Shown here in pieces: positions 47,441 to 64,000 of a DNA stretch of 64,000 bases. The first letter of the stretch is position 1; each line of letters starts with the position of its first letter. Origin of the DNA: a bacterium (GTDB taxonomy: Bacteria > Zhuqueibacterota > Zhuqueibacteria > Residuimicrobiales > Krinioviventaceae); assembly GCA_963693055.1 (NCBI GenBank), contig OY843751.1:1472001-1536000 (forward strand), given 5' to 3'. The notes beneath the pieces are model-generated. The model was not told the DNA's origin and ran no database searches. It saw nothing but the letters and a program-made list of their open reading frames with translations. A program made the translations under genes and the position numbers.

Positions 47441-48835
47441 GTGGAAAACGAAGTAAACCAGGCAATATTAGATCAATATGATTGCATTTGTATTGAGCAA
47501 AAGGGGGCTCAAATAAAACTTGTTAGTCATATAGATCATCAACCGCAGGAACTGGAAGAACTTGAATTCTTGTTGAATACGTCTGTGATGTTTAACAGAA
47601 TTTCCAAAGAAGAATTTGTTGAGATCCAGAAAATAAATGGTATCAACAGCAGTTCAATTAAAACCCAACCTACAGAAAAATCTCATGTCATAGATGAAAG
47701 CAGCGAGAACACGATTCAATTTGTCGATGATATTATTTATCAGGCAATCAGCGACAAAGCTAGCGATATTCATTTTGAACCCTATGAAACTTTTTTTCGG
47801 ATACGATACCGTATAGATGGTGTCTTGTTGGAAGTAAAAAAAATTGACAATCAGCAAAAAAACTCTATCATTGCACGCTTAAAGATTATGGCAGAATTGG
47901 ACATAGCTGAAAAAAGACGTCCCCAGGATGGCAGAATCCGAATAAAAAAAGATTCCCAGAATATTGATATACGCGTTTCTACTTTACCTACCGATTATGG
48001 TGAAAAAGTTGTATTACGTATTCTCGACAAGTCCATCGCTACATTTGATTTGGATAAATTAGGATTAGGTGATATGGAATCACGTCTCATTGGTGATGCA
48101 ATCCAGTCGCCTTTTGGGATTATATTGGTGACAGGGCCCACCGGTAGCGGTAAAAGTACTACACTCTATTCTGTATTAAAAGAACTCAATGATCCGGGAT
48201 ATAACATCGTTACGATAGAAGATCCCATCGAGTATAACGTTGAAGGAATCAATCAATCTCATGTGCGCTCAGATATTGGATACACTTTTGCAAGCGCATT
48301 ACGTAGCTTTCTAAGACAGGATCCAGATGTAATCATGGTAGGAGAGATCCGGGACCCTGAAACAGCAGAAATGGCGGTTCGTGCATCATTAACCGGGCAC
48401 CTGGTATTAAGTACAATCCATACCAATGATGCACCGAGCACCATTACCCGTTTGATCGATATGGGCATTGAACCGTTTCTGATTGCTGGATCAATAAAGC
48501 TGGTTATTGCACAGCGACTTGTTCGGATTTTGTGCAACCAATGTAAAGAACTAGTAACAGATGAACAATTAACGTTTAGAAATATTAAAATGCATTATGT
48601 ACCGAGGGGGTGTCCCTCTTGCAGGGATACAGGATACCGGGGACGCAGGGCGTTGTTTGAGATACTGGATATAACGCAAGACATCGGGGAGATGATTGCA
48701 AAACGTGCCAGTACAACAAAGATTCGTGAGATGGCTAAAGAAAACGGAATGATATCACTGCGTGAACAAGGAGTTAAGTTAATTGAGGATGGAGTTACGT
48801 CCATTTCGGAGATAATCCGGGAAACCAGTCTATAA
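47441..48835 (+). CDS. gspE: GspE/PilB-family assembly ATPase
   Basis: ASDIHFEP, RRPQDGR, GPTGSGKST, TIEDPIE, LRQDPD, GEIRD, CxxC...CxxC. Confidence 0.93.
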   Translation: MENEVNQAILDQYDCICIEQKGAQIKLVSHIDHQPQELEELEFLLNTSVMFNRISKEEFVEIQKINGINSSSIKTQPTEKSHVIDESSENTIQFVDDIIYQAISDKASDIHFEPYETFFRIRYRIDGVLLEVKKIDNQQKNSIIARLKIMAELDIAEKRRPQDGRIRIKKDSQNIDIRVSTLPTDYGEKVVLRILDKSIATFDLDKLGLGDMESRLIGDAIQSPFGIILVTGPTGSGKSTTLYSVLKELNDPGYNIVTIEDPIEYNVEGINQSHVRSDIGYTFASALRSFLRQDPDVIMVGEIRDPETAEMAVRASLTGHLVLSTIHTNDAPSTITRLIDMGIEPFLIAGSIKLVIAQRLVRILCNQCKELVTDEQLTFRNIKMHYVPRGCPSCRDTGYRGRRALFEILDITQDIGEMIAKRASTTKIREMAKENGMISLREQGVKLIEDGVTSISEIIRETSL

Positions 48836-48848
48836 TGTGAGGTAAATT

Positions 48849-50744
48849 ATGAAATTGCTGTACCGTCGGATAGAGATAATCTCTATCATCGGATTCGTAT
48901 GTCTATTCAACAATTTTTTTGAAAATGTATATGCCAATCCATCTGAAATAAATACCGAAATTAAAACCGACAGTAGTATTGTAATTCAGATTTTGGATTT
49001 CAAGAACACGGATATCAAAGATGTTGTCAGAGCTATTGCTGATACTTATGGATTGAACATTTTTGTAGAAGATGCTATCGATTATCGTGTTACGATTCAT
49101 CTTGAAAATGTATCCATAAACGATGCATTAAATTTTCTGGCCAATCGTGCTGATCTTGAAATTCAACAAGAGGGCAGTATTATTAAATTTCTACTGCCTC
49201 CACCCGAGCCGATTCCTCCACTTGATATATCCTTTAATGCACCCAAATTATCATTGGATGTGAAAAATGAACCAGTATCTCGGGTCGTCAAGGAAATTTC
49301 TCAAATTTGCTCAACTAATATTGTTTTGAACAAAGGAGTGAGTGGTACAGTCTCCGGGTTTTTGCAAAATCTGGATTTAGAAGAGTGCCTGGCTACTTTT
49401 TTCAGTATGAATGGTTATGAGGTTAAAAAGAAAAATAGTATTTACCATGTGGATTGGGGGATGGATTATGGAACTGAAACTACCCAGCAGAAAAGAAGGG
49501 GAAGCCGAATTGATGTTGTTGATGGGTTGATCAGTATGGATTTTCATGATGTTGAGATCAAGCAGGCAGTGCAAGAGATTGCACAGCAGGTAGAAACCGA
49601 TATAATTGTATATGGTAATTTAGAAGGGAGGATCACCGCAAAATGTTCCAATATCACTTTTGATGATGCATTAAACTATTTGTTTAAAGGTACCAAATAC
49701 ACGTTTCGCAAAGATGAAGATATATATTTTATCGGGGATAAAACCGTTCAGGGAATTAACTCCAGTAAACTGATCAAATTACAGCATTTAAAAGCTGAAG
49801 GGTTGATCGAAACCATACCAAAAGAAATAATCCAGGGTGCATCCATAAAGATCATCAAGGAACACAATGGATTGATGGTGACCGGTGCAGAGAATCTGAT
49901 TCGGGAAACTGAGGATTATATTAGGCAGATCGATTATCCCATTCCACAGATTTTGATTGAAGCACTGGTTGTGGATTATAATATGTCTGATATAGATGAA
50001 TTTAGTATCGAGGCTGGCTTGGGTGATCCCAATGCTGATGATACAACCGGTGTTTTGAATTATCGTTCCTTGTTTCCAAATGTTGAGCAATCTGCAAACG
50101 GTGACTTTTTGAACGCATCTATTGAATTATACGGTCCGCAATGGGGACTTCCCAATGTTGGAAAGCTGCCCAGCAATTTTTATATGCAAGTAAAAGCGTT
50201 GGAACAAGAGAGTAAAGCCAAAGTTAGATCACGTCCACAAATTGCAACCCTGAATGGACATACGGCAAGTATCAATATTGGCACTACGCAATATTACAAA
50301 ATTAAAACGCAAACCCCCTATCAATCAACACAGCAACTCTATGTCTCCGAGTCGGAACGTTTTGAGACCATCAAGGCCGAGATGATTCTGGAAATTACAC
50401 CCTGGGTTAGTGCATCGGGAGAGATCACAACAGAAATACATCCGGAATTTAGTACCCCCAAAGGTTCACTGGATTCAGAGACACCGCCAACAATTGATCA
50501 TAGAATTTTAAGCTCAACTATTCGATTAAAAGATGGTGAGACAATTGTATTGGGTGGATTGATCCAGGAAGTGGATTCTAAAACGTATCAGAAATTTCCG
50601 ATTTTAGGAGATATCCCTTTATTGGGCCGATTGTTTAGGAATCACAATATTCAAAAAACGACAACAGAGTTGATGATATATGTTACTCCTCACTTGTATT
50701 ATGAAGATTTGGGAAAAGTCGATGTTGAAGAAATTATCAAATAA
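48849..50744 (+). CDS. gspD: Secretin (GspD/PilQ family)
   Basis: STN-like N domains, PQILIEA, LKDGETIVLGGL, PILGDIPLLGRLF, ELMIYVTP. Confidence 0.92.
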   Translation: MKLLYRRIEIISIIGFVCLFNNFFENVYANPSEINTEIKTDSSIVIQILDFKNTDIKDVVRAIADTYGLNIFVEDAIDYRVTIHLENVSINDALNFLANRADLEIQQEGSIIKFLLPPPEPIPPLDISFNAPKLSLDVKNEPVSRVVKEISQICSTNIVLNKGVSGTVSGFLQNLDLEECLATFFSMNGYEVKKKNSIYHVDWGMDYGTETTQQKRRGSRIDVVDGLISMDFHDVEIKQAVQEIAQQVETDIIVYGNLEGRITAKCSNITFDDALNYLFKGTKYTFRKDEDIYFIGDKTVQGINSSKLIKLQHLKAEGLIETIPKEIIQGASIKIIKEHNGLMVTGAENLIRETEDYIRQIDYPIPQILIEALVVDYNMSDIDEFSIEAGLGDPNADDTTGVLNYRSLFPNVEQSANGDFLNASIELYGPQWGLPNVGKLPSNFYMQVKALEQESKAKVRSRPQIATLNGHTASINIGTTQYYKIKTQTPYQSTQQLYVSESERFETIKAEMILEITPWVSASGEITTEIHPEFSTPKGSLDSETPPTIDHRILSSTIRLKDGETIVLGGLIQEVDSKTYQKFPILGDIPLLGRLFRNHNIQKTTTELMIYVTPHLYYEDLGKVDVEEIIK

Positions 50745-63885: not shown

Positions 63886-63916
63886 TAAAATTTTGACAAT
63901 AAACTTGGAGTTTAAA

Positions 63917-64000
63917 ATGAAAAACGAAATTTTTGTATTATTAATAGTTGTTTTGGTTTTCTTTGGTGTTGCAACTTCTCAGAAAGTTGAAAGAGAAGAA
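63917..64000 (+). CDS. Partial ORF with signal peptide (runs off window)
   Basis: GGAG RBS; MKNEIFVLLIVVLVFFGVATSQKVEREE. Confidence 0.6.
   Translation, partial: MKNEIFVLLIVVLVFFGVATSQKVEREE

Follow-up and report, generated by a model that had tools for sequence, protein, structure and literature searches.

The window analysed here is a stretch of 64,000 nucleotides (C1:1472001-1536000 of a complete 6.5-Mb bacterial genome, G000). Its last part carries a candidate toxin-export system: a plus-strand operon for a pilus-like machine (47441-58694), closed by a gene for a bacterial enhancer-binding protein (bEBP) and followed, after a spacer with palindromes and a promoter, by the genes of an RHS toxin. 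The window cuts this system in half, and genes beyond position 64000 are given in the coordinates of L001 (G000:C1:1530000-1549999). The features are as follows, with protein sizes in amino acids (aa).

47441-48835, plus strand: assembly ATPase of GspE/PilB type, 464 aa, short N-terminus (PF00437)
48849-50744, plus strand: secretin, 631 aa (PF00263, STN, N0)
50680-53128, plus strand: PilM/N-like fusion (477 aa), PilO-like gene (176 aa) and PilP-position gene (159 aa) (PF05137, PF04350)
53112-55410, plus strand: three genes in minor-pilin position, 463, 122 and 183 aa (N_methyl motif in the 122- and 183-aa proteins)
55412-56563, plus strand: platform protein GspF/PilC (PF00482 twice)
56564-56992, plus strand: major (pseudo)pilin (profile scan; survey marker)
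56992-57777, plus strand: prepilin peptidase (PF06750, PF01478)
57741-58694, plus strand: sensor-less bEBP, 317 aa, loop 1 GAFTSA, Fis-type helix-turn-helix (HTH) (PF00158, PF25601, PF02954)
58738-58898, no strand: two perfect palindromes (58738-58762 and 58804-58824) and a half site near 58878
58972-58987, plus strand: -24/-12-type promoter, GA variant at -12 (motif comparison)
59026-63885, plus strand: RHS shell, 1619 aa (DUF6443, RHS_repeat; profile matches to solved RHS shells)
63917-64000 and on to L001:7594, plus strand: accessory "middle" gene, 558 aa (NF033679, signal-like start)
L001:7652-8707: core-plus-tip gene, 351 aa (signal-like start; RHS-associated core TIGR03696, 68.7 bits; 218-aa tip)
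L001:8871-9974: candidate immunity gene, 367 aa (signal-like start; TolB-like propeller, from position and weak TIGR02800/PD40 matches)

The operon is densely packed, with intergenic gaps of -65 to +13 bp. The original prediction described 11 genes ending in a bEBP; the bEBP is indeed last, and the full count is 12, namely 11 genes plus the bEBP. Its statement that no retraction ATPase PilT is encoded was confirmed by a profile scan of the operon proteins. The PilP-position gene had no profile match and is named from its position only, and the 463-aa gene in minor-pilin position was judged K/PilX-like from position and N-terminus only. In nine related loci (L043, L045, L046, L048-L050, L052, L054 and L057) an extra lipoprotein-like gene of 160-250 aa follows the major pilin; it is missing from the window operon, and the single copy scanned had no Pfam match.

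The operon had been labelled "T2SS/pilus" (T2SS, type II secretion system); as a classical T2SS the machine does not qualify. The secretin reached 201 bits with the GspD equivalog TIGR02517 (cut-off 351) and the ATPase 536 bits with the GspE equivalog TIGR02533 (cut-off 630), while PilN and PilO matches stand in place of GspC, GspL and GspM; the GspG-type pseudopilin model TIGR01710 gave 44.5 bits (cut-off 88.9). The PilN and PilO matches lean towards a type IVa pilus, as does the higher score of the secretin with the PilQ model TIGR02515, which at 238 bits stays under its cut-off of 284; the ATPase scored 542 bits with TIGR02538, also below cut-off. The major pilin matched ComP_DUS. Comparison with Table 2 of PMC5553014 (this and the other papers cited entered the analysis as excerpts) shows that the gene set, comprising E, D, F, G, the peptidase, minor pilins and PilMNOP-like genes without PilT, is that of the "Bacteroidetes T2SS", and the Bacteroidota pilin-profile matches L168, L169 and L176 have the Fjoh gene order, a comparison of gene order and not of CHU or Fjoh protein sequences. 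Judged by gene order, the machine matches this pilus-derived type, described with the same PilT-less gene set from Cytophaga hutchinsonii (CHU_3191-3202) and Flavobacterium johnsoniae (Fjoh_0611-0622) (PMC5553014, PMC6668835). Denise et al. (PMC6668835) grouped it with type IVa pili and considered it a possibly new, independently derived secretion system. Our ATPase tree, from which reference T2SS rows were left out, had 13 of 21 inner branches open. A separate PilB/PilT/PilC locus lies at C1:3638647-3655295 of G000, and its pilin-like gene has a TGA-type -24/-12 site.

Linkage of the machine to RHS genes

The major pilin served as the family marker in all surveys (5659 relatives at E<=1e-25 among 8000 candidates scored). 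In the phylum of G000, 19 of 167 genomes encode the pilin, and an RHS core was found in 16 of these 19 as against 39 of the 148 pilin-negative genomes. A second survey of 401 genomes in the phylum of a Bacteroidales record gave 39 pilin carriers with 41 pilin loci; here the core was present in 38 of 39 carriers versus 124 of 362 others.

The original prediction would have had to be given up if RHS genes were not conserved beside homologous operons, and that test was run: they are kept at 12 of 14 informative loci of the own phylum and at 30 of 41 in the second sample. The 20 own-phylum loci comprise these 12 with an adjacent RHS gene (in G161 only an opposite-strand orphan), six cut by contig ends and two without one; among 14 further named loci, 11 have an adjacent RHS gene and three are cut. 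In the second sample, 30 of the 41 loci had a core no more than 25 kb away and 32 had one no more than 35 kb away, where chance would give at most 2.4 and 3.3, respectively. The nine misses include two in which the shell is cut by a contig end, five less than 5 kb from a contig end and two real ones. Control loci in the same genomes (tables read by eye) had a core within 25 kb at 1 of 38 sprA genes and at none of 23 PilT-like loci. Relatives of the operon are recorded as Calditrichota, Rhodothermales, Cloacimonadales and Bacteroidota, the linkage persists despite shuffling of gene order between loci, and six loci (L189, L190, L194-L197) have RHS genes inside the operon.

The machine is nearly always accompanied by RHS genes, and the converse fails for this RHS family. 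The link is one-sided because signal-bearing RHS genes also occur in pilin-negative genomes without a secretin match. Inspection of 11 pilin-negative genomes found five with RHS proteins lacking a signal-like start, five with such a start and one with an orphan core only; the five signal-less proteins are Tc-type by our own reading rather than by profile scan. A close shell relative in G504 lies near a PilT-bearing locus.

G000 itself has a second operon (C1:2177812-2188176), and the window secretin is 80% identical to that of this paralogous locus. Directly after the paralogous RHS genes, one array extends over C1:2195605-2225691 (L033:10606 onward) and holds all 19 G000 genes of a signal-bearing, tail-fibre-like family with a conserved C-terminal domain. 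In several other genomes single copies lie within the operon or next to it, and two pilin-negative genomes have them next to RHS genes (L050, L067, L069, L163, L191-L193, L196, L232, L234); only the L069 copy had a PHROG tail-fibre match. The family is possibly a second class of cargo or a set of receptor-binding partners. A cluster of transposase genes lies upstream of the window operon (39945-44303), and insertion sequence-type genes also adjoin the paralogue. The G+C content of the RHS region is 31-33%, that of the genome 39%. Orphan RHS core/tip and immunity cassettes occur in G000 at C1:362758, 2229966-2233728 and 5149000-5159300, several of them beside transposases.

A predicted toxin in three pieces

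The 1619-aa protein had been described as an RHS/YD protein with a Sec signal. The RHS/DUF6443 assignment stands, as does a signal-like N-terminus seen by eye; the protein is the shell alone, and the core and tip lie in genes beyond position 64000. Its lack of PAAR, VgrG and T9SS (type IX secretion) tail regions was upheld by profile scan. No T9SS C-terminal sorting domain was found by Pfam scan on shell, middle or core, and the same scan detected such a tail in the neighbouring gene at 45629-46087. PF05488 (PAAR) and PF05954 (VgrG-type) had no matches in the genome, which is 100% complete.

Shell, middle, core and propeller genes each have a signal-like start after a purine-rich, ribosome-binding-like site (by eye). 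The middle protein comprises a beta-supersandwich, a DNRLRE domain and a C-terminal RHS hairpin, and its tail is kept in 4 of 4 aligned homologues. A structure model with a mean predicted local distance difference test (pLDDT) score of 63 has the supersandwich and a further domain, for which fold matches include carbohydrate-binding modules as well as TGF-beta prodomains (Z 12.5); a shared fold proves no function. The core matches RHS and Tc cores in the PDB, and in its DxxG cleavage motif R102, D107, D131 and G134 are invariant in 12 of 12 aligned sequences. A single-sequence fold of core plus tip was unusable (pLDDT 33). Aligned with one intact RHS protein (L189), the parts are colinear: the shell tail covers residues 1672-1913, the last hairpin of the middle protein 1919-1935 and the core 1961-2069. 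The hairpin alignment is weak alone (E 0.2); the tail of the paralogue aligns at E 1e-3. This colinearity suggests that the three pieces likely assemble into one closed RHS particle. Several intact RHS proteins have inserted domains at the split point, which suggests how the split may have arisen.

An assembly error as the source of the split was considered and rejected: the stops match with 0 differences in contigs of three runs (one sample, hence not independent), the signal-like starts are kept and the same cut occurs in other genomes. Downstream of the second operon of G000 lie genes for a 1704-aa shell, a 169-aa middle protein and a signal-bearing core protein; the same three parts are found in G080 and in the second RHS of G004, and G135 has a middle-core pair. 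In G135 (L044/L065) the minor pilin genes of the operon are also interrupted by two signal-bearing short RHS-core/tip genes with their partners. On a Calditrichia contig, a single shell gene precedes two signal-bearing core genes whose tips differ. No core is present in any of the eight closest shell relatives (one is probably truncated). Two-part forms occur in G004, G032, G140 and in records from Rhodothermales and Cloacimonadales; intact forms are seen in Bacteroidales. A signal-plus-core gene as a common architecture was rejected, as 2 of the best 120 relatives listed (P0001 itself and P0002) combine signal and core and two further flags proved false by eye; the three-way form is therefore lineage-restricted.

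Of the hallmarks of RHS polymorphic toxins, a YD/RHS shell, a core with the DxxG motif, and variable tips with adjacent candidate immunity genes are present. We counted 63 distinct tips. Ten had Pfam matches, mostly to wall hydrolases and toxins (TseH-like, amidase, two YkuD, M91, colicin-type RNase, TNT, Ntox34, eCIS core and a chlorophyllase-type family). Of 56 downstream genes, 41 encode a hydrophobic N-terminus by a crude rule, compared with 1140 of 3381 open reading frames genome-wide (34%). Orphan tip arrays are exemplified by 11 cores beside the operon in G168, and many operon-linked RHS proteins bear PKD, fn3, CBM or lectin domains.

The sigma54 activator and its predicted sites

The bEBP consists of AAA+ and Fis-type HTH domains without a sensor domain, and rpoN is present in G000. 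Its loop reads GAFTSA, with the same loop ending in G080 and GAFTGA in most relatives. A sensor-less bEBP closes the operon in the window and in G004, G024, G032, G080, G092 and G142; longer bEBPs occur in G140, G161 and a Calditrichia record.

Phased palindromes had been noted after the operon, and two perfect palindromes and a half site are indeed there. The 21-bp palindromes lie 64 bp apart and are the only two matches in 6.5 Mb at up to three mismatches. They resemble sites of Fis-type HTH proteins and are likely the bEBP enhancer. The spacers of G004, G080 and G092 contain the window palindrome again, and the bEBPs of these genomes have the recognition-helix motif in common; in G032 and the Calditrichia locus different palindrome sets go with different recognition helices, and none were found in the two bEBP-less spacers examined. 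A genome-wide pattern search in five genomes returned 12 sites in four of them, all upstream of RHS genes, and none with a reversed control. Eight of the 12 had served to derive the pattern. The four new ones are also at RHS genes, one at the second RHS of G004 and three in G080 ahead of a teneurin-like gene that is unlinked and has a -24/-12 site. The first palindrome is also terminator-like, being a perfect hairpin that comes with a run of T. A role as terminators only was rejected: it fits this first copy, but neither the arrays before the unlinked gene nor copies with broken stems.

The predicted -24/-12 promoter was located at 58972-58987, with GA rather than GC at -12. G000 has 801 intergenic -24-type sites; at the sigma54 spacing from these, TG occurs 114 times versus 41-62 times at 15 other offsets, and TGA 31 times versus 8-20. 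The GA variant is likely tolerated in G000, since TGA is enriched at this spacing genome-wide. Sigma54-type promoters of this genome seem relaxed at -12, with TGC, TGT and TGA about equally frequent at the correct spacing. A sigma-70 scan was uninformative (65 sites, 60 expected). Taken together, palindrome arrays before RHS genes and nowhere that the bEBP is absent suggest that the bEBP likely activates the RHS genes through sigma54. This part of the original prediction thus stands in outline, with the amendment that the bEBP is optional.

Upstream of the operon, an XRE-family HTH gene (46777-47115) has a half site of the enhancer motif overlapping its start, and a perfect inverted repeat with 17-bp arms lies at about 47160-47200, between this gene and the ATPase gene. 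Gene and repeat form a possible upstream control layer.

Mechanism, rival explanations and meaning

We favour, at a probability of roughly 0.6, the reading that a PilT-less, pilus-derived machine exports RHS toxins out of the periplasm, that three Sec-exported pieces likely form one particle and that the last gene of the operon is likely a sigma54 switch. Each toxin piece would cross the inner membrane by Sec. The shell would wrap the tip, and the middle protein would contribute a hairpin together with a domain that probably binds glycans. The core would plug the shell and self-cleave at its intact aspartyl-protease motif, whose role in cleavage is known from Tc and RHS proteins. Secretin and pseudopilus would then move the particle, or its parts, over the outer membrane. 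The tip would kill neighbours, probably at the envelope, and the exported propeller protein would confer immunity. As the bEBP lacks a sensor, its amount, governed by transcription of the operon, would place cargo expression after that of the machine. The proposal that the RHS protein is a dedicated substrate gains from RHS adjacency across phyla; it needs revision in that the cargo is not one protein and that the RHS family also occurs without a secretin match.

Several observations weigh against this reading. Pilin loci without RHS genes exist in both samples (G133 and G142 in the own phylum, G357 and G563 in the second), and among metagenome loci, 6 of the 10 with full flanks had an RHS gene within 10 kb, and so did 7 of all 18 that were at least 12 kb long. 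The genomes are kin and not independent, so that Fisher values for the locus test are overstated. Of the 124 pilin-negative genomes with a core in the second sample, 39 were picked for at least five RHS cores; six of these have a secretin, 10 a VgrG-type match and 23 neither, and G303 has a signal-bearing DUF6443 RHS pair with both secretin and VgrG-type matches absent. A bEBP is missing from the paralogue, G053, G061, G077 and G135. About 25 residues of the intact RHS protein (1936-1960 in L189) have no counterpart in the three parts of the window, and the 218-aa window tip had no Pfam or PHROG match and a best Atlas score of 0.82, within the range of chance. Finally, C. hutchinsonii mutants of the related machine had a defect in cellulose use and hardly changed secreted proteins (PMC5553014).

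Machine and RHS genes may instead travel together as a conflict island, the RHS proteins leaving by another route (T9SS piggy-backing, vesicles or lysis) and the machine serving a related task, for example presenting the fibre-like proteins or holding on to the target cell. In size, a folded RHS shell comes close to what a secretin channel can pass. T9SS is at hand, as sprA occurs in G000 and in 38 of the 39 genomes with the operon. G000 (with all 19 of its copies), G140, G168 and G170 have fibre-like genes clustered at the operon, and G303 combines signal-bearing RHS and fibre-like genes without a secretin match. However, the window RHS parts and the operon-linked RHS proteins scanned have no T9SS tail, RHS genes are embedded in the operon and share its activator, and the window locus lacks a fibre gene. 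On balance we regard this explanation as unlikely.

Far less probable is an ordinary pilus or DNA-uptake system with RHS genes piling up at an adjacent insertion hot spot. The PilQ-leaning secretin, the ComP_DUS match of the pilin and the PilN/PilO-like genes would fit it, as would transposase genes near both operon copies and the same-genus genome G001, which has no close secretin or pilin match to either operon. Yet PilT is absent from the operon, and no protein at PilT level was found in 16 of the 39 carrier genomes of the second sample; G000 has its separate PilB/PilT/PilC locus, none of the 23 PilT-like loci lies near an RHS core, and RHS adjacency persists across phyla and gene orders. 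That the machine exports RHS products serving as surface adhesins or teneurin-like kin-recognition proteins rather than as weapons would suit the modelled CBM-like fold of the middle protein, the PKD, fn3, CBM or lectin domains of many linked RHS proteins, the bEBP motif before a teneurin-like gene and a window tip that matches no toxin family. We give this reading little credence, as the tips are hypervariable and have cognate downstream genes, orphan tips occur in arrays (11 cores in G168), and some tips match families of amidases, L,D-transpeptidases, RNases and TNT toxins.

The RHS shell of a Tc toxin (TcB-TcC) is not made of a single chain, and its last chain bears core and tip, an arrangement common to the window locus. 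Unlike Tc toxins, the locus has no TcA-sized gene, each piece has a signal-like N-terminus, and the cut falls directly before the core, so that a plug of about 110 residues plus tip forms a gene of its own.

Among other known systems, the "T2SS/Sec-dependent" polymorphic toxins (PMC3482391) have, as here, a signal peptide, RHS repeats, a variable tip and an immunity gene. Table 1 of that paper treats the pathway as a default without signature neighbour genes, whereas here a specific machine is the signature neighbour. A 35-kb T2S cluster of the fish pathogen F. psychrophilum CC-ST10 has T2S-like genes interleaved with exported proteins of ABC-toxin (RHS-type) domains, and a dedicated translocation role was hypothesised for it (PMC5808330); that report, as excerpted, concerns one clonal complex in a passing remark, without a survey, sigma54 link or split core. 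For the "Bacteroidetes T2SS" no substrate is established; the machine described here is linked with a family of RHS proteins and a split cargo, and its operon includes a bEBP gene. The excerpted C. hutchinsonii paper contains no occurrence of "Rhs" (PMC5553014), and PMC5524665, likewise in excerpt, draws no link between the machine and RHS toxins. The control logic parallels RpoN/Sfa2 of the H2 type VI secretion system (T6SS) of Pseudomonas aeruginosa, where a machine-cluster bEBP activates scattered effector loci via sigma54 (PMC8855297); the machine there is another one, and the window bEBP lacks an N-terminal sensor. We found no general description of the machine/RHS pairing in the literature searched, although supplements of PMC3482391 and PMC6668835 may list such neighbourhoods.

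Comparative sequence evidence points to a real, conserved system in which Sec-type RHS toxins go together with a likely exporter derived from type IVa pili; the sigma54 switch is optional, and in this lineage the toxin comes in three pieces. More tentatively, it might be a toxin-secretion system in its own right that evolved independently in the FCB (Fibrobacteres-Chlorobi-Bacteroidetes) superphylum. In it, a pilus-derived machine would be dedicated to RHS particles, the shell would be a reusable chassis, loaded after translation with core-plus-tip cartridges that are exported separately (and with variable modules of glycan-binding or fibre type), small signal-bearing core genes would be active without recombination, and the sigma54 switch would be encoded with the machine. 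The linkage gives a concrete candidate substrate class to a widespread machine flagged by a 2019 phylogeny as possibly of a new type (PMC6668835), a proposal checkable in culturable Bacteroidota, and offers a possible outer-membrane route for signal-peptide RHS toxins of Gram-negative bacteria without T6SS. The split indicates that core and tip of an RHS protein can form a separate gene with a predicted export signal. This has a bearing on the closure of RHS shells about their cargo and on the question whether orphan tips depend on recombination.

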